IMG/VR virus record: IMGVR_UViG_3300045988_146736
Span: 1 to 28,351 of that record
DNA: 28,351 nt
DNA from: a virus
Direction: 5' to 3' (one strand)
The notes beneath the pieces were generated by a model. It was not told the origin of the DNA. It saw only the letters and a list, made by a program, of their open reading frames with translations, and did no database searches. Position numbers and translations under genes: made by a program. Below are positions 1,993 through 28,351 of the stretch, piece after piece (within the stretch, counting starts at the first letter, position 1; every line of letters starts with the position of its first letter).

Positions 1993-2084
1993 ACGCTAGC
2001 CGGTTGCGCGCCAGTCGGTGACGCGTGAGCGTCGCCGACGTGATTTTATCCCTCATCCTTTATCTTCTCCTTCATCCTTGCGCG

Positions 2085-2420
2085 CATGTCCCGCGTGACA
2101 TCACGCGCATGTCACACACCTATGTCACGCGTGACGTGAGCGTGACAATGAGGGTTAGGGGTGGGCGCATTTTTCGGTGGGATGGGGCGGTTTGTCGGGG
2201 TGGAGCGGTATATTTCCTGGCATATTTTGCGCTACTTTCCCACTCGGATGTCACGCCGGATGTCACGCGATTTTGCCCCCGGTGTCACGCGCGTTTTTTC
2301 CGATGTCACACGACGTTACGCACCCGGTCACGCGCATGTCACACGTGACTTCACGCGTGACATGTGGCGTGACTGCGGGCGTGGCAGCTGATTGGCAACG
2401 CGTGTTGCAGGTCACGCAAT
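2085..2420. repeat. Iteron-like array of GTCAC(G/A)C motifs (candidate origin of replication or operator array)
   Basis: Exact GTCAC at 2111, 2124, 2250, 2262, 2284, 2305, 2327, 2338 and 2411. Exact GTGAC at 2095, 2131, 2142, 2345, 2357 and 2369. Most extend to (C/G)ATGTCACRCG. Palindromes at 2093..2106 and 2124..2135. Perfect 12-bp tandem cggatgtcacgc at 2245..2268. AT-rich patches at 2041..2080 and 2208..2243. Confidence 0.7.
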
Positions 2421-2425
2421 TACCC

Positions 2426-2503
2426 TTGCATACGGCTATGCATAGGTGTATGCTGGGGTCATCGGGAGGAAAGGCCCCCCGATAGACCGAAAGGACCGAA
2501 GCC
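2426..2503 (+). promoter_or_regulatory. Early promoter-leader cassette, copy 1 (TTGCAT-17-TATGCT, 5' hairpin, conserved RBS block)
   Basis: -35 at 2426..2431 and -10 at 2449..2454. A hairpin at 2461..2483 begins about 7 nt after the -10. The AGACCGAAAGGACCGAA block lies directly before the ATG at 2504. Bases 2425..2457 are 33/33 identical to the reverse complement of 7331..7363. Confidence 0.7.
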
Positions 2504-2869
2504 ATGAACACCGAGACCGCGACCACGAACGAAACCATCCGCGACTACCTCGGCGACTTCGCCAATGAGTTCACCGAGGATCAAATCAGCATCATCACCG
2601 CCGCCGCTACAGACGTCGAGGAGCGCATCATCGCCAAGTACGGCGACATGACCCTCGAGGAGCGCGGCGTGATGATGCTGACGCCGCTCGAGGCTATCGT
2701 CGAGTACGTCAGTGATGAGACGACGCTCGCTAAGTGCGTCGGCGACGATGAGCGCCTGGAGGCCGCCCTGATCGCCGGTGCATACAGTGGCCGCCTCACG
2801 GAGCGCCTTGCCGAAGCCGCCGGGATCGACCTGGCCAAGGCGCAGGAGCTCCTCGGGGATCTTGCCTGA
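2504..2869 (+). CDS. Acidic protein of unknown function, paralog A (121 aa), possible C-terminal helix-turn-helix
   Basis: ATG with the conserved RBS block. By eye it aligns along its whole length with the product of 8723..9082 (MNTET..., ITxAAT..EER, YGxMT, RLExAxIAGxYxG, LAxxAGIxLAKAxxxLGxL). I count about 26 Asp/Glu against 9 Arg/Lys. Confidence 0.8.
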   Translation: MNTETATTNETIRDYLGDFANEFTEDQISIITAAATDVEERIIAKYGDMTLEERGVMMLTPLEAIVEYVSDETTLAKCVGDDERLEAALIAGAYSGRLTERLAEAAGIDLAKAQELLGDLA

Positions 2870-2877
2870 CTTACCCC

Positions 2878-2907
2878 GGAGGCCCCGTCCATCCCGGCGG
2901 GGCCTCC
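2878..2907 (+). promoter_or_regulatory. GC-rich hairpin after paralog A (possible attenuator or RNA-stabilising element)
   Basis: ggaggccccg (2878..2887) pairs with cggggcctcc (2898..2907): a 10-bp stem with a 10-nt loop and no U-tract. A hairpin occupies the same position after paralog B. Confidence 0.4.
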
Positions 2908-2930
2908 ACCTCGTGAAAGGATAATACACC

Positions 2931-3152
2931 ATGACCACCATCGAGCCCCCCGACTTCGCGTTCAACTTCAAGACCGGATATGCCCGCATTGGCTCCGAGA
3001 CCATCCGCCCAATCAATGGCATCACCCAGCAGACCAACGGCTTCGGGGCGCATTTCATCACACTGACTATCCCGGTTGCCCGCGTCATCATCGAGGACGA
3101 TCCGACCGGCCCCGTTAACCCGTCCGCCCCTAGCTTCACCGTGCGCCCCTGA
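2931..3152 (+). CDS. Hypothetical protein (73 aa)
   Basis: ATG preceded by GAAAGGA. Same strand as the rest of island 1. No recognisable motif. Confidence 0.55.
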   Translation: MTTIEPPDFAFNFKTGYARIGSETIRPINGITQQTNGFGAHFITLTIPVARVIIEDDPTGPVNPSAPSFTVRP

Positions 3153-3165
3153 AGGGACTAAGACA

Positions 3166-3888
3166 ATGACCGCTATTGACAAGATCATCGCGCAGATTCG
3201 CCAGCTCCTGAAAATTGCGTCCGACGGGGGCGCGAGTATCAACGAGCGCGAATTGGCGCAGCGTCGCGCCGAGCGTCTCATGGTGCGTTATCGCATCGAA
3301 ACACTGCCCGATAGTGACGCGCGCGCCCGCGACGAAGACATGACTACCATCACAGTTGAAATCAAGGGGAGCTCCGGGTCAATGGCGCGCGCAATCGTGG
3401 ACGGCCTCGCCACGCTCTCCCACGCTCTGAGTTGCTTCTGTTCGTGGCGCATGTACCGAAGCCACATCGTGGCTACCATCGTGGGCACCCGCTCGGACCT
3501 CGCATACGTCACGGAGTTCTACAACGCTGCCGTAGCGTCCTACCCGTCCATGTTGAAGGCCCGGCTGCGTCACGAAGACTTCTACAGTGAGTCGGAGCGC
3601 CGTCGTTTCCGGCGTTCCTACGTGATGGGCTATTTTGAGGGCATCGCCGAGCGTATCGAGATCGCTACCCGTGAGGAGACGACGTCGACGGGGCAGGAAC
3701 TTGTGCTTGCGTCCCGATACCAGCGGGCCGAGGCGAAGGCCCGCGAGGGGTGCAAAATACGCATGGCGCGTGACCTCATGATCGACCATAACGCGACGGT
3801 TGGCGGACAGCGCGACGGGTACGCCTCCGGCATTGGCTGGATGGGCGAGCGCCTTGACGGCCCGCGCGTCGGCATTGCCGCCTCCTGA
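3166..3888 (+). CDS. DUF2786-like protein (240 aa)
   Basis: ORF 3076..3888 trimmed to the ATG at 3166 (GAAGGGA upstream). The N-terminus IDKIIAQIRQLLKIASDGGASINERELAQRRAERLMVRYRIE matches my recollection of the DUF2786 pattern (KI.kLLalA...neNEAe.A...A..Lm.ky.I). Confidence 0.6.
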   Translation: MTAIDKIIAQIRQLLKIASDGGASINERELAQRRAERLMVRYRIETLPDSDARARDEDMTTITVEIKGSSGSMARAIVDGLATLSHALSCFCSWRMYRSHIVATIVGTRSDLAYVTEFYNAAVASYPSMLKARLRHEDFYSESERRRFRRSYVMGYFEGIAERIEIATREETTSTGQELVLASRYQRAEAKAREGCKIRMARDLMIDHNATVGGQRDGYASGIGWMGERLDGPRVGIAAS

Positions 3889-3912
3889 TGAATTCACCGA
3901 AAGGCATCCCCC

Positions 3913-4374
3913 ATGAATCGTGTTGCGCGCCCCCTCGTTGGGCTGCTGATCCTGATCGTCCTTGTCCTCGTGTTCGTGATGTCCGGCGGGTCTGCGTCCC
4001 GCACGTCGAACGCGGTGGCGAACACGCCAGCCCCTCCGGTGCTGACCGGGTGGGTGGGTGCGGATAGCCGCCAGCAGTGGACGCTATCGTGGACGCCCGC
4101 GTCGAGCGGCGGTCTTGTCGACGTGGCGTCTGATTCGGAGGACGTGTACCCGGGCGTGACGTGCCGGACGGACGCCGGGCGTGAATTCACGCTGACTGGC
4201 ACGCAGGAGGCCGTGAATCGCGTGTCCGTCCGCATCCCGGCGGGTGTCGCGCGGTGTGATGCGTACATGGGCGGGCGGCCCGCATCGAAGACGCGGCGCA
4301 TGTTCAATAACGTGACCGTCGACGGCGCGCCCGTGATTGGTGTCATCGAGCCGGGAGCTGCGCGGATGGTCTAA
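3913..4374 (+). CDS. Signal-anchored or secreted protein (153 aa), function unknown
   Basis: ATG with CGAAAGG 8 nt upstream. The N-terminus MNRVARPLVGLLILIVLVLVFVMSGG is a basic stretch followed by a long hydrophobic helix. There is no lipobox Cys. It is the last gene of island 1, just before the terminator. Confidence 0.65.
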   Translation: MNRVARPLVGLLILIVLVLVFVMSGGSASRTSNAVANTPAPPVLTGWVGADSRQQWTLSWTPASSGGLVDVASDSEDVYPGVTCRTDAGREFTLTGTQEAVNRVSVRIPAGVARCDAYMGGRPASKTRRMFNNVTVDGAPVIGVIEPGAARMV

Positions 4375-4381
4375 TGTTGAT

Positions 4382-4421
4382 AGCGCCCCGCCTTCCTGTT
4401 TGTCAGGATCGGCGGGGCGCT
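4382..4421. terminator. Bidirectional terminator hairpin between island 1 and the recombination operon
   Basis: agcgccccgcc (4382..4392) pairs with ggcggggcgct (4411..4421): an 11-bp stem with an 18-nt loop, followed by tttgcgttt on the plus strand. It sits between convergent genes. Confidence 0.55.
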
Positions 4422-4427
4422 TTGCGT

Positions 4428-4859
4428 TTAGTCATCGATTGCTGTCACGGCGACGTGTACGCCGGGCGGTTGGCCGTCGGATGCCCACCGTTTGGTCAGG
4501 ACCCACGTCACGATGCGCGAGTCCTCTAGCAGGATGCCGCCGGGGGCCGCGAGCGCATCGCCGACGGCGCGGGCCAGCTTGTCGAGGTCCGGTTTGGTTG
4601 CCGCGTGGTCAGGGAACCTGGGGCGCTTTGGGCGCGGTAGGTAGAAGTGCGCCTGGACGGCGACAGGGCCGTCATACTGTGGCTCCCACCCGGCGGCGCG
4701 GGCGGCGTCGTTGGCGGAGCGGGCGACGATGGTTCGCCACCCCGCGAGCCGGGGGTTGTCGTGCGCGACGACGGGACGCCCGCCCCGGTAACCGACGTAC
4801 CTGTGAGAGCCTTCGGGGGCGGCGACGCCCTCCGCGAAGAAACTGACCACGCGTTTCAC
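4428..4859 (-). CDS. rusA: RusA-family Holliday junction resolvase (143 aa)
   Basis: ORF 4428..4964 trimmed to the GTG at 4859, which overlaps the upstream TGA (GTGA). Motif KPDLDKLARAVGDAL...LLEDSRIV is typical of RusA. Confidence 0.75.
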   Translation of the reverse strand: MKRVVSFFAEGVAAPEGSHRYVGYRGGRPVVAHDNPRLAGWRTIVARSANDAARAAGWEPQYDGPVAVQAHFYLPRPKRPRFPDHAATKPDLDKLARAVGDALAAPGGILLEDSRIVTWVLTKRWASDGQPPGVHVAVTAIDD

Positions 4860-5458
4860 TGTTCGCCGCCGTCGTCGTTCAGGGCGGTCACGCGCGCCTT
4901 GATGAGGTCCTGCAGCTCGGGGTGCGCTTGCCACCACGCGCGGAGCTGTTCCTTGTCCGTGCAAGCGGCGATCAGCTCGGGCGTGACGGCGGGCGTCGTC
5001 GCGTCGTTATTCGCCGCGTCGGCGGTTGCCGGGCGTCCGTCTTCGTCGGGGTCGCCGGTGATGCCCCAATCAACCTGGGCGAGCTGGCGCTTCGCGTAGG
5101 TCAGGTTTGCGCCGAACGCCTGGGGGTTTGCCGGTCGGTCAACGATGAGCGCGCCGAGGGGCATAGTGTTTCCGTCGGCGTCCACGAGGCTCGAGATGAG
5201 GATAGGCGGCGTGTCCCCGGTGGGGGCCTGGATCGCCTGTCGGTAGGCGAGCCCGTGCTTTGCGCACGCGGCGCGGATGACGCCGAGCGTGGCTTTCAGG
5301 GATGCGAAGCGCGTCCTGAAGTGCGGGTTCGACGCGTCGAGGGGCGGGTTTTCACAGTCTGCCCAGGCGGCGGCGAAGCGCGCCTCGATGCTGACAGGGG
5401 TTCGCGCGGGCGTGGTCTTGCGGGCAGCGGGCTTCTTTTCGGGGGCGGTGTCGGTCAT
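4856..5458 (-). CDS. ERF-family single-strand annealing protein (200 aa)
   Basis: Motif NPHFRTRFASLKATLGVIRAACAKHGLAYRQ resembles the ERF signature (N..F.skYa.L..v......khGl...Q). It lies next to an exonuclease and a resolvase. Confidence 0.65.
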   Translation of the reverse strand: MTDTAPEKKPAARKTTPARTPVSIEARFAAAWADCENPPLDASNPHFRTRFASLKATLGVIRAACAKHGLAYRQAIQAPTGDTPPILISSLVDADGNTMPLGALIVDRPANPQAFGANLTYAKRQLAQVDWGITGDPDEDGRPATADAANNDATTPAVTPELIAACTDKEQLRAWWQAHPELQDLIKARVTALNDDGGEQ

Positions 5459-5479
5459 TGTCGTGTCCTTTCTATGTGG

Positions 5480-6322
5480 TCAGTTTGCCTGGGCGGCGTA
5501 CCAGGCGGGCGGGGTGATTTCGGTGATCGCATCGCCGTAGGCGGGCCAGACGTTGAACACCTGGCACATGTTCAGGGTGTCGAGGGCACGGCGCATACGC
5601 GCGTACCCGGCGGCGAGGAAAGACTCGTCCATGATGACGACGCTAACCAGGTGGGGGGCGTCCACGCCGACGAGGACGTGAACGAAGCACGCGTCCTCAC
5701 CGGTGACGGCTTTCCACTGGGTCAGATACCAGGCGGCCTGGACCGCGTAGTCGAGGTTCGCGGCGTCGCGCGCCCACGACTTGGGGCGCGGCTGCCTCGT
5801 GGTTTTCAGGTCCACGAGGACGGTACGCCCGACGTCGTCTCGCGTGGTCCAATCGATCCGGCCCCGGAGCCATAGGCCCGTGTCGGGGTCAACGCTGTAG
5901 ATCGACTGCTCGGGCGTGCCCTGTGCGAACAGGGCTGCGGCGGCGGGGTGGTTCATGACCGCCTGGTAGGCGTCCTCGGCGCGCGCGTAGTCGGCGCGAC
6001 TCATGGGGACCTGGCCGCGCTCACGGGCCGCCGCGATGTCTTCCTTCGCGGCCTTTGTGCGTAGGCTGTCGTGGTCGTGGACGTAGATGTCAAGGCCGGT
6101 ACCAAGGACCATACCGTGGACGGTGTGACCGAAATCGAACGCTGCCTTCGGGGGGGCCGGGTTCTCTTTCGACCACTTGTAAAGGGCCGGGCAATCGAGG
6201 AGGCGCTTAGCCTCCGTCGATGACACCGACCCGGGGGGGCCAAAACGGCCCGAGTGGTAGTCCAGCTCGGGCACGTCGGGGTAGATGCCTGCCACGAAAG
6301 CGGCGGGGTCATTGTCTGCCAT
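5480..6322 (-). CDS. PD-(D/E)XK (RecB/Cas4-like) exonuclease (280 aa)
   Basis: Motifs GRIDW...LVDLKTT and YAVQAAWY (D...(D/E)xK plus QxxxY), in a recombination-module context. Confidence 0.7.
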   Translation of the reverse strand: MADNDPAAFVAGIYPDVPELDYHSGRFGPPGSVSSTEAKRLLDCPALYKWSKENPAPPKAAFDFGHTVHGMVLGTGLDIYVHDHDSLRTKAAKEDIAAARERGQVPMSRADYARAEDAYQAVMNHPAAAALFAQGTPEQSIYSVDPDTGLWLRGRIDWTTRDDVGRTVLVDLKTTRQPRPKSWARDAANLDYAVQAAWYLTQWKAVTGEDACFVHVLVGVDAPHLVSVVIMDESFLAAGYARMRRALDTLNMCQVFNVWPAYGDAITEITPPAWYAAQAN

Positions 6323-6524
6323 GTGTGGGTCTTTCCTTTCGGTCGGAATGTTGTCGGGATAGGCGTCGCCAGTCCCGGCTTAGGCTGATCGTGCCCGCGA
6401 GCGCGATCACGGCACCGAGGGGGAGCGCCCAGGACGGGTCCCAACCCCCGGGGTTGGTAGGGCCACCCGACGCGGCGACGACGAGCAGTCCCACAATGAG
6501 GAGGATAGGGGTGAGCGGGTTCAT
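6309..6524 (-). CDS. Small membrane protein (71 aa)
   Basis: ORF 6309..6566 trimmed to the ATG at 6524 (AAGGAGGG upstream, ATGA overlap with the upstream stop). It has two hydrophobic segments (PILLIVGLLVVAASGG and WALPLGAVIALAGTI). Confidence 0.55.
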   Translation of the reverse strand: MNPLTPILLIVGLLVVAASGGPTNPGGWDPSWALPLGAVIALAGTISLSRDWRRLSRQHSDRKERPTHGRQ

Positions 6525-6850
6525 TTGCGTCCCTCCTTGCTGACCAGCGGGTAGGAAATGATGCACGGCACATGGTCGATTGCGCCGTCCTCGGCGCGGA
6601 TCGCCACGCAGCCGTGCATTTCGAGGTCGTTGCCGTTGACGACGACATACCGGGCGTCGTTCATGAGCATTGCCGCGTCAATGGTGTCGTCGCGCTTCAG
6701 GGCGTGGAGTTCGACGCCCCACACGCCCTGGAACTCGGCGCTGCGGGCGACACGGACGTCCGCGACCGCGCGCGTTGACTGTTGCACGACGTCAACGAAG
6801 CGGGCGGCTACGCGTTTGGCGGCTTGGAAGGCCAGGAAATCGGGGTCCAT
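6521..6850 (-). CDS. Hypothetical protein (109 aa)
   Basis: ORF 6521..6955 trimmed to the ATG at 6850 (GAAAGGA upstream). No recognisable motif. Confidence 0.6.
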   Translation of the reverse strand: MDPDFLAFQAAKRVAARFVDVVQQSTRAVADVRVARSAEFQGVWGVELHALKRDDTIDAAMLMNDARYVVVNGNDLEMHGCVAIRAEDGAIDHVPCIISYPLVSKEGRK

Positions 6851-6914
6851 GATGGGTGTCCTTTCGATGGGGTGCCCCCGGCCCTGTGGGGCGGGCCGGG
6901 GGCGATGGTGGTTG

Positions 6915-7283
6915 TCACTCGCTGTCGGCGAGCGCGGCGGCGATAGCCGTGTCAATGGCCGGGTAGGTCGGGCGCTCCTTACCCTCCCACTTGGAGCCCG
7001 CCCACACCTGCGCGGGCCAAAGGCGGCGGGGAAGGACGGCCTCGATGTCCGGCCACTCGCCCGGATCGTCGGATGAGAAGTAGACCTTCTCGCCGAGGAT
7101 GCGGTTCATGACGACGCGAACCTCGTCGTCAATGACGTCGATGTAGATTGCGAGGAGGTTGTCGCCGTCAACGCGGGCCGTGAGGTCTGCGCCGGGCGCG
7201 ATGATGCGCTTCCAGTCGCCGAGGGGCAGCTTGTTCAGGTCGATCCAGTTGAGTTGATCGGCGGAGGTAATGATCGGGTTCAT
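6915..7283 (-). CDS. Hypothetical protein (122 aa), first gene behind early cassette copy 3
   Basis: ORF 6915..7442 trimmed to the ATG at 7283. That ATG is preceded by the same AGACCGAAAGGACCGAAACC block seen upstream of 2504 and 8723. Confidence 0.7.
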   Translation of the reverse strand: MNPIITSADQLNWIDLNKLPLGDWKRIIAPGADLTARVDGDNLLAIYIDVIDDEVRVVMNRILGEKVYFSSDDPGEWPDIEAVLPRRLWPAQVWAGSKWEGKERPTYPAIDTAIAAALADSE

Positions 7284-7362
7284 GGTTTCGGTCCTTTCGG
7301 TCTTTGGGCGGGCGTTTCCCTCCCAATGATCCCAGCATACACCTATGCATAGCCGTATGCAA
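7284..7362 (-). promoter_or_regulatory. Early promoter-leader cassette, copy 3 (inverted relative to copies 1 and 2)
   Basis: Minus strand: -35 TTGCAT (7362..7357), 17-nt spacer, -10 TATGCT (7339..7334), hairpin 7326..7304, then AGACCGAAAGGACCGAAACC-ATG. Confidence 0.7.
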
Positions 7363-7397: not shown

Positions 7398-7430
7398 GGG
7401 GGCCTCGCCGACCGAAAAGGCGAGGCCCCC
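7398..7430 (-). terminator. Terminator hairpin downstream of the methyltransferase gene
   Basis: gggggcctcgcc (7398..7409) pairs with ggcgaggccccc (7419..7430): a 12-bp stem with a 9-nt loop. On the minus strand it is followed by TTTCACTTTAT. A second 6-bp hairpin lies at 7433..7449. Confidence 0.65.
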
Positions 7431-7534: not shown

Positions 7535-8545
7535 TTAAATGAGGAAGTCGAGCGGCGCGTCGATCCCCCGCCGGAACCGATCATGAATCAACGGGATATA
7601 GCGCTCGTCGAGCTCACACCCGACCGCGTTCACGCCCTCCATTGCGGCGGCCTGTAGGGTCGTCCCCGACCCGGCGAACGGCTCGAGGATCGTCGCGCCT
7701 GGCCTCACCACAAGCCGGATCAGGTAACGCATGAGATCGAGGGGCTTGACTGTCACGTGCTGCACCCCCCCCACCTTCGGGCGTTCGTGCGTCGGGGCCT
7801 TCGGCTGGTACTTGAAGCTCGGCCAGCTGTGATCGGGCGCGCCCTGTTCGACAGCCGCCGCGAGCGCGGCTTCGCTGACCATGAGGTTAGGCGGGTAGGA
7901 CCCGCCGACGGCGTCCATTGCTGACCGGATGTTCATTGCTCCGGTCCCGAAGGCGCTCACGTTGTCGACTAAGCTGCCCTCGAGTGGCTTTCGAGCCACT
8001 ACGATAGGCTCCCATGCTGGTTTTAGGCCGAGGCCCCAGCCGTCCCATGTCTTAGCCATGTCCGTAACCGGCTCGCCGGAGCTGTGTACCTTGTGGGTGG
8101 ACATATGCGTCGCTGTGTTGCCGCTGTCCCACTTTCTCACGTCGCGCCCCTCGCGCTCGTCGAGAACACCGGCTGCCCTGTCGAACATTGCAGAGAGATT
8201 TACCGCCGCCGGTTTCCTATCGGCGAATATCCATGAGAGTCCATCCCTGACTTCGAAGCCCGCATCCTCAATGCCAGCTGTGAGACGATGGTAGGTTCGC
8301 GGCGACGAAAACGCCAGCAGGTAGCCGCCGGGCTTGATGGTGCGCAGAGCTTCAACTGCCCATGATTCGGCCCATGATTGAAACCCGCGCGGCGTTGCGG
8401 TGTCCCACTTTTCGCCCATGAATGAAATTCCATACGGCGGGTCGGTAATGATCGCGTCGAAGTGATCGGCGGGCATTTCCCGCATGATGTCGCGGCAGTC
8501 GCCGTTGTGGAGGGTAATCCCCTCATAGATTGTTTGTCCGGTCAT
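7535..8545 (-). CDS. DNA methyltransferase, beta-class (N6_N4_Mtase family), probably N6-adenine (336 aa)
   Basis: ORF 7535..8617 trimmed to the ATG at 8545 (the upstream Met codons fall inside the promoter). Motif IV IITDPPYG is near the N-terminus and motif I ILEPFAGSGTT near the C-terminus. There is no adjacent restriction endonuclease. Confidence 0.85.
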   Translation of the reverse strand: MTGQTIYEGITLHNGDCRDIMREMPADHFDAIITDPPYGISFMGEKWDTATPRGFQSWAESWAVEALRTIKPGGYLLAFSSPRTYHRLTAGIEDAGFEVRDGLSWIFADRKPAAVNLSAMFDRAAGVLDEREGRDVRKWDSGNTATHMSTHKVHSSGEPVTDMAKTWDGWGLGLKPAWEPIVVARKPLEGSLVDNVSAFGTGAMNIRSAMDAVGGSYPPNLMVSEAALAAAVEQGAPDHSWPSFKYQPKAPTHERPKVGGVQHVTVKPLDLMRYLIRLVVRPGATILEPFAGSGTTLQAAAMEGVNAVGCELDERYIPLIHDRFRRGIDAPLDFLI

Positions 8546-8579
8546 GGTTGCTCGCTTTGGTAGGTGGCATTGCGTTTCG

Positions 8580-8608
8580 ATAGTAGGGCCATGCATCACT
8601 GTATGCAA
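8580..8608 (-). promoter_or_regulatory. Predicted methyltransferase promoter (TTGCAT-17-TACTAT)
   Basis: Minus strand: TTGCATACagtgATGCATggcccTACTAT. It shares the TTGCATAC-N4-ATGCAT layout with cassette copies 1 and 3, and lies back-to-back with cassette copy 2. Confidence 0.55.
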
Positions 8609-8645
8609 ATCTTCCATATGTGGCTACAGTCTCTTATATCCCTAC

Positions 8646-8722
8646 TTGCATAACGCTATCCACTAGGTGTATGCTGGGGGTATCCCCTGAAGGGCAGGGG
8701 ACAGACCGAAAGGACCGAAACC
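8646..8722 (+). promoter_or_regulatory. Early promoter-leader cassette, copy 2
   Basis: -35 TTGCAT at 8646..8651, 18-nt spacer, -10 TATGCT at 8670..8675. Hairpin tcccctg/cagggga at 8683..8701, then AGACCGAAAGGACCGAAACC-GTG. Confidence 0.65.
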
Positions 8723-9082
8723 GTGAACACCGAGACCGTTATCAAGATGGTTGGCGACTTCTTTGACCTCACCGCCGAGGACTTCACCCCCAAGCAGCTC
8801 GCCGTCATCACCGAAGCCGCGACCGAAATCGAGGAGCGCCTCGCTAGGTACGGCGAGATGACGACGTTCGAGAAGAACATCATGATGCACGGCGCTATGG
8901 GTGCCGTCGTTGACTACGCGAGCGGATGCACGCCCCTGGCCGAGTTCATCTACGATGACGCCCGCCTGGAGGGCGCGATGATCGCGGGCATCTACGCAGG
9001 CAAGACCACGGCCCAGCTCGCCAACGAAGCGGGCATCACGCTTGCCAAGGCGTCGCGCATCCTCGGCAGCCTTGACTTCTGA
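8723..9082 (+). CDS. Acidic protein of unknown function, paralog B (119 aa)
   Basis: GTG start in the conserved leader context. The first 15 coding nt after the start codon are identical to those of 2504..2869. The protein aligns with paralog A over its full length. Confidence 0.8.
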   Translation: MNTETVIKMVGDFFDLTAEDFTPKQLAVITEAATEIEERLARYGEMTTFEKNIMMHGAMGAVVDYASGCTPLAEFIYDDARLEGAMIAGIYAGKTTAQLANEAGITLAKASRILGSLDF

Positions 9083-9090
9083 CCTATCCC

Positions 9091-9114
9091 CGCCCCGCCC
9101 AACCGGGCGGGGCG
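9091..9114 (+). promoter_or_regulatory. GC-rich hairpin after paralog B
   Basis: cgccccgccc (9091..9100) pairs with gggcggggcg (9105..9114): a perfect 10-bp stem with a 4-nt loop, followed by TTAT. Confidence 0.45.
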
Positions 9115-9144
9115 TTATCACCCCAATCACGAAAGAAGACCGAA

Positions 9145-9489
9145 ATGACCGAAAACACCGAAGCCCACGACCGCGATGACCACGTGACCACGGCACTGCT
9201 GGCCGCCCTGATCGGCAAGACCGTACAAAGCGTTACCGTCACGCTCCCAGCCGACGCGCTGACCGGTGACTACCTTGCCCACCTCGTCGCCGACATGGAG
9301 CCCGCCGAGTACGAGGCGTTCGCCGCGACCCTTGACGAGCAGGTCGTCGCCAACGGCGCAACCAAGGCCGCCGCGCTCACCGATCCGCGCGAGGACCGCA
9401 CGCCACATTGGCGGGGCGCTATCTACATGATTGACCGCGACGGGGACGACGTCACCGTGAAGGTGCTGGTTTTCACCTGCCGGTGCTAA
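9145..9489 (+). CDS. Hypothetical acidic protein (114 aa)
   Basis: ATG preceded by GAAAGAAGACCGAA. Second and last gene of island 2. No recognisable motif. Confidence 0.6.
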   Translation: MTENTEAHDRDDHVTTALLAALIGKTVQSVTVTLPADALTGDYLAHLVADMEPAEYEAFAATLDEQVVANGATKAAALTDPREDRTPHWRGAIYMIDRDGDDVTVKVLVFTCRC

Positions 9490-24804: not shown

Positions 24805-24893
24805 AGGTTCCCTTTCCGGTTGGTTGACTTTTGTCTCCAATGGTACACACCGCCGCGCTGTGATAGGGGATCGGCATATCACACCGCCCACAT

Positions 24894-24922
24894 TGGCATT
24901 ATGCATCACATGTGCATATAAT
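24894..24922 (+). promoter_or_regulatory. Predicted promoter of the HTH gene (TGGCAT-17-TATAAT)
   Basis: -35 at 24894..24899 and a consensus -10 TATAAT at 24917..24922, 29 nt before the ATG. The leader AGACCGttcagAAAGGACCGAc resembles the early-cassette RBS block. Confidence 0.6.
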
Positions 24923-24951
24923 GATGCAAAGACCGTTCAGAAAGGACCGAC

Positions 24952-25269
24952 ATGACCGACATCGCCGAGCGCCGCTCGGACCTGCTGATTTCACAGACTG
25001 ACTTCGGGCGGCTCGCCGCCGGGGTGAAACAGACATCCGTCTCACGTTGGGAGCGGGGTAAGCACATCGAGCAATCTGACATGTTGGACAATGTGCTTGA
25101 CTCCGCCGAAGCAAAGCGGCGCGCGCTGACACGCTTCATTCACAAGGACCGACCGCGCTTCGCGGTCACGGAGGCCGATTATCGGGAGCGTTTCCCGGAT
25201 TATTGCCCAATCATCCCCTATGCCCTGTATCGCATCATTCATAACGCGGTACACGACATGACTACATGA
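24952..25269 (+). CDS. Cro/CI (XRE)-type helix-turn-helix regulator (105 aa)
   Basis: Motif ISQTDFGRLAAGVKQTSVSRWERGKH is a classic HTH_3 pattern. It is the only plus-strand gene in the late region, and its 3' end overlaps the terminase stop tail-to-tail by 8 nt. Confidence 0.8.
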   Translation: MTDIAERRSDLLISQTDFGRLAAGVKQTSVSRWERGKHIEQSDMLDNVLDSAEAKRRALTRFIHKDRPRFAVTEADYRERFPDYCPIIPYALYRIIHNAVHDMTT

Positions 25270-27254: not shown

Positions 27255-27268
27255 TGCCCCCCGTCACG

Positions 27269-27571
27269 TTACCAGGCTACCAGGGTTGTTGTGGTGCCTG
27301 TTCGGCGGCGCTTTGGAGCGTTGTTGCGCCCGTTCCCGCGCCGTTGATTGCATCGCCTGCATATCGTGCGCCCGTTGTCGAGCGTGTTCGTCCCGCCAAG
27401 CGACCACGGGGTGATGTGGTCGGGTTCGGGGCTGTCCGGTTGCAGGCTGGTGTCCCATGCGAGCGTGACGCCGCAGGTGGGGCAGGTGGTCTGTCCGGCG
27501 GCGCGGTCACGTTTAAGGACGGCTGCACGCCAGCGCTTGTGTCCGGTGGTTCCGGTCCTACTGGTGGTCAT
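27269..27571 (-). CDS. HNH endonuclease (100 aa)
   Basis: CPTCG ... DHITPWSLGGTNTLDNGRTICRRCN (paired CxxC plus the H-N-N/H core). Its position beside the terminase genes is as in cos-type HNH phages. Confidence 0.85.
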   Translation of the reverse strand: MTTSRTGTTGHKRWRAAVLKRDRAAGQTTCPTCGVTLAWDTSLQPDSPEPDHITPWSLGGTNTLDNGRTICRRCNQRRGNGRNNAPKRRRTGTTTTLVAW

Positions 27572-28058: not shown

Positions 28059-28351
28059 TTAGTCGCGGGTGGGGAGGTTGCGTGATGCGCGGGCGATGTC
28101 CGCGAAGGCGCGCATCGGGTCATAGTTTCGGTACTCATCGATGATACGCTGCCGTTCGGCGTCGGTGTCGATGGTGTACTCGATGCGGAGCCCGACGTGG
28201 TGCGCGTCAACGTACTCGACGGCGGTCGGTTCAATGCTGATTGCTTCGGCGTCATCGGGTAGCTTGCGGAGGGCTTTGGCGATGTCGCGGAGCTTCACTG
28301 GCTTGTCGGACGCCCAGGTGATTGTCAGGATGCGCGTGTTTCGCGTGTTCA
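28059..28351 (-). CDS. Hypothetical protein, gene split by the linearisation point (97 aa when wrapped; start codon is 33,32,31)
   Basis: The frame of ORF 28059..28298 stays open to the window end. Bases 28350..28351 (equal to 31..32) plus base 33 form an ATG with GAAAGG (47..42) 8 nt upstream and an ATGA overlap with the stop of gene 30..233. The GTG at 28298 has no RBS. Confidence 0.65.
   Translation of the reverse strand, partial: NTRNTRILTITWASDKPVKLRDIAKALRKLPDDAEAISIEPTAVEYVDAHHVGLRIEYTIDTDAERQRIIDEYRNYDPMRAFADIARASRNLPTRD
28320..28351. repeat. Terminal direct repeat, copy 2
   Basis: Identical to 1..32. Confidence 0.9.

Follow-up and report, generated by a model that had tools for sequence, protein, structure and literature searches.

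A repeated promoter, hairpin and ribosome-binding-site cassette in LC001-like phages is probably an early expression unit with a protective 5' leader

Introduction

What does a small phage do with one non-coding sequence that it carries three times, in both orientations, each copy ending at the start codon of a gene? We met this question in a 28,351-nt stretch of viral DNA (IMG/VR record IMGVR_UViG_3300045988_146736, hereafter the window), in which ~85-nt cassettes lie at 2425-2509(+), 7363-7278(-) and 8645-8728(+). An original prediction, made from the letters of the window alone, had described them as an ~80-bp unit of promoter, 5' hairpin and ribosome-binding site (RBS); its coordinates and sequences all hold, and its interpretation is supported in every part that can be checked computationally.

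The window is a complete circular relative (~28.3 kb, 90-93% identity) of LC001, a lytic phage of Schaalia odontolytica. Schaalia is an oral bacterium and the host of LC001-like phages. The family appears strictly lytic: we looked for copies in bacterial genomes and found none.

Results

The cassette is a bounded unit shared by related phages

When the three copies are aligned (alignment A1), similarity begins sharply at CTTGCAT and stops at (A/G)TGAAC. Between copies 1 and 2, part of it runs on into the coding region because the genes downstream are paralogs (48% amino acid identity, E 2e-34). Chance and simple gene duplication were rejected as origins of the repeat, since duplication accounts only for this extension into the paralogous coding regions.

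Searched with a covariance model, the window, LC001 and 39 related loci from viruses or metagenomes yielded 101 cassettes, 79 of them distinct, at 2-5 per contig and upstream of at least five unrelated gene families. All parts are kept: the promoter TTGCAT-17/18-TATGCT, in which the -10 may also be TATACT, then a constant gap of 7 nt, a hairpin of 7-9 bp, the RBS block AGACCGAAAGGACCGAA and the start codon. Differences of 1-2 nt in the length of the hairpin's 3' arm and of the RBS spacer rule out a coding reading and led us to reject a leader peptide. LC001 lacks copy 2, so this copy is dispensable. A second phage group carries its cassettes in tandem.

The window has no match in Rfam 15 at gathering thresholds; a permissive search of 2380-2560 returned three matches, the weakest at E = 0.8 and all far under gathering scores. 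The RBS block is absent from the Actinomyces and Schaalia genomes in the 596 Gb scanned, and its 46 single matches in unrelated taxa are chance hits and not prophage or host copies.

The cassettes head transcription units (Table 1). Copy 1 follows the iteron region, copy 3 stands right behind a terminator, and copy 2 is back to back with a divergent methyltransferase (MTase) promoter, the true start of the MTase probably being the ATG at 8545. After the fam1 gene, the operon of copy 3 continues with a PD-(D/E)XK exonuclease, ERF and RusA; the module between copies 1 and 3 encodes these three and a DUF2786 protein, and holds no transposase or invertase gene. The operons of copies 1 and 3 had been expected to meet at a bidirectional terminator, and on either strand the hairpin at 4382-4421 indeed gives a strong fold (-37 and -34 kcal/mol, with z -6.5 and -7.1). 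The fam0 protein, first gene behind two of the three cassettes, is predicted to be an all-helical orphan of ~120 aa. It has no Pfam or PHROG match, its detectable homologs are close ones only, and there is no sequence relative in the PDB; the protein gives weak sigma/LuxR-like fold hints, and its confident AF2 model yields no Foldseek match below E = 0.17.

Table 1. Features of the three cassettes and of their surroundings in the window
Feature	Position	Strand	Details
Copy 1 promoter	2426..2454	+	-35 TTGCAT 2426-2431, 17-nt spacer, -10 TATGCT 2449-2454; kept in relatives
Copy 1 spacer region with TGCAT-N6-ATGCA	2427-2442	+	
Copy 1 5' hairpin	2461..2483	+	AUCGGGAGG-AAAGG-CCCCCCGAU, A unpaired; -11.6 kcal/mol
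Copy 1 RBS block	2484..2506	+	AGACCGAAAGGACCGAA, SD GAAAGGA 2489-2495, then gcc, ATG 2504-2506
Gene behind copy 1	2504..2869	+	121 aa, fam0
Bidirectional terminator hairpin	4382..4421	both	copy 1 and copy 3 operons converge there
Gene behind copy 3	7283..6915	-	122 aa, fam1
Copy 3 RBS block	7281..7303	-	block 7303-7287, then acc, ATG 7283-7281
Copy 3 5' hairpin	7304..7326	-	UUGGGAGGG-AAACG-CCCGCCCAA; -12.2 kcal/mol; compensatory C-G to U-A change relative to relatives
Copy 3 promoter	7334..7362	-	-35 TTGCAT 7362-7357, -10 TATGCT 7339-7334; same as copy 1
Terminator-like hairpin, then U-run	7398..7430	-	ends MTase unit ~35 nt upstream of copy 3 -35
MTase promoter	8580..8608	-	TTGCATACAGTGATGCATGGCCCTACTAT; class I promoter architecture, no hairpin or RBS block
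Copy 2 promoter	8646..8675	+	-35 TTGCAT 8646-8651, 18-nt spacer, -10 TATGCT 8670-8675
Copy 2 5' hairpin	8683..8701	+	UCCCCUG-AAGGG-CAGGGGA; -12.2 kcal/mol, z -3.0
Copy 2 RBS block	8703..8725	+	block 8703-8719, then acc, GTG 8723-8725
Gene behind copy 2	8723..9082	+	119 aa; paralog of copy 1's gene
RBS-block-like repeat	9137..9162	+	AGACCGAAATGACCGAAAACACCGAA; includes ATG of gene 9145..9489; no promoter or hairpin
Xre-type HTH gene leader	24893..24954	+	TTGGCA-18-TATAAT, TATGCAT in spacer, AGACCG-ttcag-AAAGGACCGAc-ATG; E 0.028
Xre-type HTH gene	24952..25269	+	partial cassette relative upstream

The upstream part has promoter geometry and, in class I, a palindrome

The predicted 33/33 identity of the promoter block proved exact, cttgcatacggctatgcataggtgtatgctggg being the same at 2425-2457(+) and 7363-7331(-), and an inverted-repeat finder joined copies 1 and 3, with arm lengths of 48 nt (94%) and 42 nt (88%). 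As had also been proposed, the block reads as TTGCAT-17/18-TATGCT (17-nt spacer in copies 1 and 3, 18 in copy 2), which sits 49-53 nt ahead of the start codons in the geometry of a sigma-70/sigma-A promoter; this geometry is retained in the 79 distinct cassettes. The pattern TTGNNN-16/18-TANNNT has only 10 sites in the genome, five of which are these promoters. A stricter consensus scan (at least 4/6 matches per hexamer) does not list the cassette promoters because TTGCAT agrees with TTGACA at only 3/6 positions. Two classes of promoter can be told apart by spacer sequence; in both, the -35, the -10 and the spacing between them are kept, and the hairpin begins after the same 7-nt gap. One contig (L013 = L116) combines cassettes of class I and class II as a mosaic.

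The 28-nt promoter block is also a near-palindrome, and its reverse strand matches the covariance model; we rejected a reverse-strand promoter within it as the reverse -35 and -10 are poor. The core, TGCAT-N6-ATGCA, is conserved in class I promoters and in the MTase promoter and absent from class II. Across the window, TGCATA/TATGCA occurs 13 times against ~4 expected, with 10 occurrences inside the five promoter regions, where all four ATGCAT sites fall as well, and TGCAT-N6-ATGCA-N6-TANNNT has 3 matches against 0 expected. The MTase promoter and the leader of the HTH gene had been put forward as diverged members of the family, and each is so in part: the former has exactly the class I spacing and lacks both hairpin and RBS block, while the latter has an RBS block with a 5-nt insertion and lacks the hairpin. 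Of 18 fam1 cassettes, 8 have lost the TT of the -35 and retained TGCAT/GCAT, a pattern more in keeping with a protein site than with sigma contacting a -35.

These observations are the ground for a possible, though doubtful, alternative in which the inverted repeats act on DNA: the palindrome (central CTATGCATAG), the hairpin region or both would be operators for a phage regulator, with the Xre-type HTH protein or the 120-aa fam0 protein as candidates, and the cassette would be chiefly a repressible or activatable promoter. The symmetry and enrichment of the block, the shared palindrome spacing of the MTase promoter and the half-site that outlives the -35 TT all speak for it, as does the presence of the HTH gene with TATGCAT in its own promoter. 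It is weakened by the class II promoters of the second phage group, which lack the palindrome but have the same leader; by TGCATG...TACGCA-like variants, which break the symmetry with no compensation; and by several contigs in which fam0 is truncated or absent and the promoters remain. The binding protein, moreover, is only a candidate.

The hairpin is conserved as a structure in RNA

Each copy folds into the 7-9-bp hairpin that had been proposed for it (2461-2483, 7326-7304 and 8683-8701), at -11.6 to -12.2 kcal/mol with modest single-sequence z-scores (-1.9 to -3.0). In copy 1 it begins at the predicted transcription start, A2461, the 7th nucleotide past the -10, and in 38/39 folded cassettes it begins 6-8 nt past the -10; this puts it at the 5' end of the transcript only if transcription starts at the usual 7th nucleotide. 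The hairpin sequence had been taken as unconserved, which is true only of hairpin 2, a type 2 hairpin in which the arms have changed places compared with type 1; between hairpins 1 and 3 there is sequence homology, with a common 5' arm GGGAGG and one compensatory C-G to U-A difference.

Among the 79 distinct cassettes the hairpin region has a fixed position and 47 distinct sequences. The structure was set by hand, checked on a plain MAFFT alignment and then followed through re-alignment by the covariance model. On alignment A2, which is not fitted to structure, 85.5% of cells pair, against 36-56% with the partners slid; on model-fitted alignments the figures are 89-90% and 38-60%. Pairing rather than sequence is thus what the cassettes conserve (85.5-90% of cells against 36-60% slid), with the exception of the type 1 5' arm, whose sequence is kept as well. 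For covariation the score is 0.20; shuffles give 0.04 and 0/500 of them reach the observed value, although the signal comes mostly from a few events common to many related sequences, so that the shuffle statistics overstate independence. Six of the nine hairpin pairs have changed on both sides, and G·U pairs are present. The independent stem solutions include GGGAGG/CCNCCC, CCCCUG/CAGGGG, CCCACG/CGUGGG and CGCCUG/CAGGUG (with a G·U pair), and further UUGGG/CCCAA, GGGAG/CUCCC and GGAGG/CCUCC. On the plain MAFFT alignment RNAalifold predicted no hairpin because indels had misaligned the 3' arms.

This pattern is unlike that of an operator at the hairpin itself: from one type to another the arms change places or give way to other sequences, some pairs are G·U, and bases are gained or lost in the 3' arm while the 5' arm is fixed, whereas a protein site would be symmetric. 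An intrinsic terminator or attenuator was rejected, given that AGACCGAAAGG follows the hairpins with no U-tract and a terminator scan lists none, as was an RNase III site, for which the stem is too short.

The RBS block extends beyond the Shine-Dalgarno sequence

The block AGACCGAAAGGACCGAA, said to be identical in the three copies, is found exactly at 2484, 7303(-) and 8703; with up to 3 mismatches it has five matches in the window against 0.10 expected. Its core GAAAGGA is the general Shine-Dalgarno (SD) sequence of the phage, which precedes many other genes (capsid, tape measure, ERF and SSB among them), and stands 7-8 nt ahead of the ATG or GTG. With CCUCCUUUCU, assumed here as the actinobacterial 16S 3' tail, GAAAGGA gives a duplex of -9.5 kcal/mol.

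The two GACCGAA sequences that flank the SD, which have no pairing partner in 16S rRNA, do not vary across about 100 cassettes, and both phage groups keep the type 1 5' arm UCGGGAGG almost unchanged. Taken together, these flanks and this arm point to some sequence-specific function beyond a plain nuclease barrier. The leader could be read as a translational control element, in which the SD-like GGGAGG hairpin and the tandem GACCGAA-AG-GACCGAA would bind a repressor or activator, or would form a ribosome standby or stabilising site, in the spirit of the start-associated sequences (SAS) of cluster K mycobacteriophages or of STAB-SD elements. That altered forms of the block recur ahead of the HTH gene and where gene 9145 starts suits this reading too, yet we hold it improbable: SD and start codon are unpaired in the predicted leader folds, none of which sequesters them, type 2 hairpins lack GGGAGG and vary in the loop (AAGGG, AAGGA, AAGCG), which argues against a single specific RNA-binding partner, and we found no candidate RNA-binding protein.

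The copies do not behave as the ends of a mobile segment

That the repeats are mainly recombination substrates or mobile-module ends, with copies 1 and 3 flanking an invertible or exchangeable 4.9-kb segment and the promoter features secondary, is very improbable. In its favour, copies 1 and 3 are inverted repeats of ~85 nt, the two copies within genomes show a weak sign of concerted evolution (permutation p = 0.047) and the mosaic contig mixes the two cassette classes. Against it, the repeats end at the -35 and the start codon, the third copy lies in direct orientation, copies in the second phage group are in tandem, and the module is free of transposase and invertase genes. The inversion that had been suggested between copies 1 and 3 was looked for (2510-7277) and not seen, the same gene standing behind each flank in all placeable related contigs; fam0 stays at the iteron side and fam1 at the other flank in all contigs with both copies placeable. 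Terminal inverted repeats of a transposon or MITE were rejected for the absence of a transposase, the direct third copy and the ends at the -35 and start codon.

Discussion

The cassettes are, in the reading that we favour and consider probable, host sigma-A-type early promoters joined to a standard leader with an mRNA-protecting 5'-terminal hairpin. Each would serve an LC001-like lytic phage as a self-contained unit of expression, with TTGCAT-17/18-TATGCT read, to judge from its geometry, by the host housekeeping (sigma-A/sigma-70 type) RNA polymerase and with transcription predicted to start at the A seven nucleotides past the -10. The first 19-25 nt of the mRNA would then fold as a 7-9-bp G+C-rich hairpin with 0-1 unpaired 5' nucleotides, followed by an unstructured leader whose core GAAAGGA would pair with the 3' tail of 16S rRNA 7-8 nt from the start codon. 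The phage appears to put this unit at the heads of non-structural operons, presumably early ones, ahead of otherwise unrelated genes: the recombination module, two paralogous 120-aa proteins predicted to be all-helical, and small genes of no known function. The hairpin would most likely block 5'-end-dependent decay, that is, pyrophosphate removal of the RppH type, 5' sensing by RNase E and 5' exonuclease action by RNase J, and would thereby set high, uniform early mRNA levels.

The least certain part of this explanation is the palindrome over the -35, which probably adds a regulator-binding site. A more far-reaching proposal, which we think unlikely, is that the class I palindrome, the UCGGGAGG arm and the tandem GACCGAA leader are all recognition sites for phage factors (fam0 or the Xre-type HTH protein), which would make the cassettes parts of a self-regulating early switch.

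Phages are well known to carry families of near-identical early promoters of the sigma-70 type, as in T7 A1-A3, lambda pL/pR and the early promoters of mycobacteriophages. The cassettes resemble them in having several copies per genome, at the heads of early operons, some convergent or divergent, and apparently served by host RNA polymerase; they differ in that the conserved unit takes in the whole 5' UTR up to the start codon. In the Streptomyces phage phiC31, conserved inverted repeats (CIR) at early promoters are bound by the phage repressor. Both systems are promoter-associated inverted repeats recurring in an actinobacteriophage, but the CIR are sequence-conserved protein sites of a temperate phage, whereas in these cassettes one stem sequence can stand in for another and the phages appear to be a strictly lytic family. 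Polypurine or STAB-SD 5' stabilisers occur in phage SP82 and cryIIIA, and a katG polypurine stabiliser has reportedly been described in mycobacteria (PMC2358910). The cassettes share with them an SD-like purine run, GGGAGG, near the transcript 5' end; here, unlike there, the run is base-paired in a stem and is missing from type 2 cassettes.

For the stabilising role that we propose, the closest parallels are 5'-terminal stem-loops. As far as the account in PMC3997798 and its references goes, 5'-terminal base pairing hinders RppH- and RNase E/J-dependent decay, and stabilisers of this kind include the leaders of E. coli ompA and papA, B. subtilis aprE and T7 phi10; BsRppH requires a minimum of two unpaired 5' nucleotides (PMC3997798). 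The cassette leader has the same design, a stable hairpin 0-1 nt from the predicted 5' end and then an open, strong RBS, and in both the stem sequence may vary while pairing stays. Unlike those leaders, it has a sequence-conserved 5' arm in type 1, its stabilising role is a prediction, and it would act in an actinobacterial host, where RNase E and RNase J are both present.

The SAS of cluster K mycobacteriophages are a 13-nt motif, GGGATAGGAGCCC (at most 2 changes), located 3-8 nt before start codons, and the inverted repeats of the extended SAS (ESAS) are 17 bp long and conserved in sequence, and their authors found them not to support RNA pairing (PMC3203893). Like the SAS, the RBS block is specific to actinobacteriophages, overlaps the SD, stands 3-8 nt from the starts of non-structural genes that belong to different families, has conserved positions in excess of the 16S-pairing part, often has inverted repeats just upstream and is absent from host genomes. 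The motif itself is a different one (AGACCGAAAGGACCGAA against GGGATAGGAGCCC), with 3-5 copies against 11-19 per genome, and, unlike ESAS, the stems covary and a promoter belongs to the unit; on sequence, then, the cassette is an analogue and not a member of SAS/ESAS. It opens no new category: early promoters in repeated copies, hairpins that stabilise at the 5' end and conserved RBS motifs have each been described before.

These data provide the first regulatory map for LC001-like phages (the GenBank record of LC001 has no annotation), whose prey, Schaalia odontolytica XH001, also hosts the Saccharibacteria epibiont TM7x. In Schaalia genetics promoters are still borrowed, the Kan^R promoter of pJRD215 being one example (PMC11032452), and an 85-nt unit in which promoter, putative protective hairpin and strong RBS come together offers an expression cassette ready for use. 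Its natural hairpin variants, compensatory ones included, amount to a mutant series for 5' hairpin protection in an actinobacterium that has RNase E as well as RNase J. Finally, should the self-regulating early switch be true, the cassettes would offer a tractable counterpart, in a strictly lytic actinophage, to the still unexplained SAS/ESAS of cluster K.

Gene layout

Positions 1-32 of the window are identical to 28320-28351, an assembly overlap, and the window is therefore a complete circular contig of ~28.3 kb. Over most of its length it is 90-93% identical to Actinomyces phage LC001 (ON920540, 26,219 nt, unannotated), a lytic siphophage of Schaalia odontolytica XH001 (PMC11032452). The structural, lysis and replication genes lie on the minus strand, among them terminase, portal, capsid region, tape measure, CHAP endolysin, SSB, HNH and a DnaD/O-like replisome organiser, and the cassettes are located in short non-structural operons in the 2.4-10 kb region.

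Between the replisome-organiser gene and cassette copy 1 stand at least 15 copies of GTCACGC/GTCACAC, frequently as ATGTCACGCG and several in inverted pairs, which probably form an iteron-type replication origin. The sole match of a strict sigma-70 scan, TTGACG-17-TAGCAT, is unrelated to the cassette family and likely drives the long leftward operon of replication and structural genes; the longest replisome-organiser ORF takes the TTG of this -35 as its start codon, which is probably wrong. An ORF situated between the SSB gene and the putative small-terminase region resembles an HNH endonuclease (DHITPWSLGG...CRRCN).

Cassettes, the genes they serve and neighbouring features
Feature	Position	Strand	Content
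Cassette copy 1	2425-2509	+	121-aa protein, 73-aa ORF, DUF2786/DUF7168 protein, 153-aa ORF
Cassette copy 2	8645-8728	+	119-aa paralog, three small ORFs
Cassette copy 3	7363-7278	-	122-aa protein, small ORFs, PD-(D/E)XK exonuclease, ERF recombinase, RusA
Paralogous ~120-aa fam0 genes	2504-2869; 8723-9082	+	
Convergent terminator	4382-4421	both	strong on both strands
Second terminator	7398-7430	-	insulates copy 3 from methyltransferase unit
Replisome-organiser gene	1054..~1960	-	
GTCACGC/GTCACAC array	2069-2420		
Strict sigma-70 site	1992-1964	-	
Methyltransferase promoter	8608-8580	-	
Methyltransferase, longest ORF	from 8617	-	
Methyltransferase, likely start	ATG 8545	-	MTGQTIYEG...
RBS-block variant	9137-9162	+	gene 9145..9489
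Xre-type HTH gene	24893-25269 (gene 24952..25269)	+	105 aa
HNH endonuclease-like ORF	~27264-27571	-	
Segments absent from LC001	2808-3847; 7914-9246		

Three cassettes and their relatives

The three copies are present as the original prediction described. Their promoter blocks are 33/33 identical between copies 1 and 3, the RBS-block 17-mer AGACCGAAAGGACCGAA occurs unchanged in every copy, and each copy folds into a hairpin (-11.6 to -12.2 kcal/mol) starting 7-8 nt 3' of the -10, with the Shine-Dalgarno (SD) and start codon unpaired in the predicted folds. With up to 3 mismatches, AGACCGAAAGGACCGAA has five matches in the window against 0.10 expected. In an alignment of the copies, similarity sets in sharply at CTTGCAT and ends at (A/G)TGAAC. 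The proposed bidirectional terminator was likewise recovered. The hairpin sequence had been described as unconserved; this holds for copy 2 (UCCCCUG...CAGGGGA), which is distinct, but copies 1 and 3 carry versions of a single sequence, UCGGGAGG...CCCCCCGA and UUGGGAGGG...CCCGCCCAA, which one compensatory change (C-G to U-A) sets apart.

Scanning IMG/VR and metagenome contigs for exact patterns gathered ~40 related loci, and a covariance model was built from 41 distinct cassettes. Run with filters off, it finds three full members in the window and no further ones; its total for the window, LC001 and 39 related loci together is 101 cassettes (79 distinct), 2-5 per contig. Genes behind them belong to at least five unrelated families: fam0 (a ~120-aa helical protein in three lineages), fam1 (MNPIIT..., 125 aa), fam2 (MKAYR..., 132 aa) and two singletons. 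Copies 1 and 2 are each followed by a fam0 gene, the two being paralogs (48% identity, E 2e-34) unrelated to the first gene behind copy 3. These paralogs form an orphan family limited to LC001-like phages and relatives. The fam0 AF2 model is confident (pLDDT 90.8) and has seven helices and an HTH-looking C-terminus; neither model nor sequence gave a significant PDB or BFVD match, sigma and LuxR-like hints being weak only.

Missing from LC001 are copy 2, the 119-aa paralog gene and the 5' portion of the methyltransferase gene, as well as the 73-aa ORF and DUF2786/DUF7168 gene; lytic growth in the laboratory therefore requires neither segment, copy 2 included. In bacterial genomes the RBS block gave 46 single matches in unrelated taxa and 0 in Actinomyces or Schaalia; absent beyond these, it is therefore phage-specific. 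No prophage copy was found in the bacterial genomes scanned, and no matching family in Rfam.

Promoter

Class I promoters (LC001-like group) read TTGCAT-ACGCCTATGCATAGGTG-TATGCT and class II promoters (a second phage group) TTGCRT-TAAATATnnnGAGGTGYG-TATACT. Their spacer sequences differ, whereas the -35, the 17-18-nt spacer length, the -10 (TAnnCT) and a 7-nt gap from the -10 to the hairpin (G/A-GTGTCA) are kept. Judged by sequence, a fixed -35, spacer length and -10 despite a changed spacer is the pattern that a promoter predicts. Ten sites in the whole genome match TTGNNN-16/18-TANNNT: five are the three cassettes and the methyltransferase and HTH-gene promoters, and a sixth heads the long leftward operon. 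The methyltransferase promoter, proposed as a diverged relative, has exact class I spacing (pattern, 3 matches against 0 expected). It falls inside the longest methyltransferase ORF. The Xre-type HTH gene, with weak HTH_3 and HTH_92 matches, is encoded antisense in a patch of low GC (0.42) flanked by the portal and terminase genes; a near-consensus promoter of its own, TTGGCA-18-TATAAT, serves it, and its leader is kept in LC001 and four other related contigs.

Class I promoters carry TGCAT-N6-ATGCA across the -35 and form a near-palindrome, GCATACnnCTATG|CATAGnnGTATGC, whose reverse strand matches the covariance model. TGCATA/TATGCA and ATGCAT cluster in the five promoter regions, and 8/18 fam1 cassettes have lost the -35 TT and retained TGCAT/GCAT. 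The palindrome, the TGCATA clustering and the TT loss hint at a candidate regulator site, but class II promoters lack the palindrome; in class I it may act as a DNA-level operator.

Ribosome binding site

GAAAGGA lies 7-8 nt 5' of the start codon. It is able to pair with CCUCCUUUCU, the usual 16S tail of actinobacteria, which we assume for the host. It also precedes many other phage genes (capsid, tape measure, ERF, exonuclease, SSB), and is therefore the normal SD of this phage. The block is a direct repeat, A-GACCGAA-AG-GACCGAA, with invariant SD flanks. A leader acting as translational regulator or standby site would account for these flanks and for the GGGAGG 5' arm of type 1 hairpins (copies 1 and 3), but GGGAGG is missing from type 2 cassettes (CCCCUG arm, copy 2) and this reading has no direct support. 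At 9137-9162, AGACCGAAATGACCGAAAACACCGAA is a variant of the block in which AGG is replaced by the ATG of a gene; the repeat runs into the coding sequence and is kept in relatives.

Hairpin

All folded cassettes but one place the hairpin 6-8 nt 3' of the -10. In a MAFFT alignment not fitted to structure, standard pairs occupy 85.5% of pair cells, against 36-56% with the 3' partners slid by 1-3 columns; model-fitted alignments give 89.4% and 90.0% against 38-60%, with a covariation score of 0.18-0.20 against 0.04 in shuffles, 0/500 of which reach it. Because many sequences share ancestry, we counted distinct pairing solutions among 47 distinct hairpin-region sequences: GGGAGG(G)/CCCNCCC, where the A never pairs; CCCCUG/CAGGGG, whose arms are interchanged; CCCACG/CGUGGG, where two double changes have occurred inside the second type; CGCCUG/CAGGUG, containing a G·U pair that is valid only in RNA; UUGGG/CCCAA, found in copy 3 of the window; GGGAG/CUCCC and GGAGG/CCUCC, where the A has gained a partner; and one with two additional base pairs at the stem foot. 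Loops vary (GAAAC, AAAGG, ACAAG, AAGGG, AAGGA, AAGCG), and single bases are gained and lost in the 3' arm, the 5' arm being fixed. This variation fits selection for an RNA stem kept in a constant position and is a poor fit to a symmetric protein-binding site, and a hairpin acting as DNA-level operator is unlikely. Differences of 1-2 nt in cassette length show the leader to be non-coding. With no U-tract 3' of the stem, a terminator is ruled out.

Arrangement of the copies

Copies 1 and 3 are inverted repeats (48 nt at 94% plus 42 nt at 88%, inverted-repeat finder), and inversion between them had been suggested; only one mosaic contig and a weak sign of concerted evolution of the copies (p = 0.047) point to cassettes as recombination substrates or invertible-segment ends, but all contigs with both copies placed keep one orientation, fam0 on the iteron side and fam1 opposite, and the idea is not supported. 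In the mosaic phage (contig L013 = L116, 27,569 nt), the class I cassette of fam0 hardly differs from window copy 1, fam1 and fam2 have class II cassettes typical of the other phage group, and a group-B fam0 gene is absent.

Discussion

As far as computation reaches, the original interpretation is supported. Onto the observed anatomy, conservation, covariation and SD usage we place a mechanism in which host RNA polymerase, presumably early, would initiate at the A 7 nt 3' of the -10. The first 19-25 nt of nascent RNA would fold at once into the hairpin, leaving 0-1 unpaired 5' nt, and this 5'-terminal hairpin may stabilise the transcript by hindering pyrophosphate removal and 5'-end-dependent attack. 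Such pairing geometry is known to hinder both processes, and BsRppH requires at least 2 unpaired 5' nt (PMC3997798); the classic cases are the ompA, papA and aprE leaders (references therein). The open, strong SD would then load ribosomes. Promoter, protective hairpin and strong SD together would thus give equal high, stable expression of several unrelated early operons.

The cassette resembles a phage early-promoter family combined with a stem-loop that stabilises the 5' end and with a consensus SD; these kinds of element are already known, and it is unsurprising in kind. Among described actinophage features, the SAS/ESAS of cluster K mycobacteriophages (PMC3203893) comes closest. Both have an SD-overlapping conserved motif before unrelated non-structural genes and upstream inverted repeats, but motif sequence and copy number differ, and the SAS/ESAS repeats do not support RNA pairing, whereas the cassette stems covary; the cassette is an analogue of SAS/ESAS, not a member. 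Its practical value lies in Schaalia genetics and in the natural series that the hairpin variants form.
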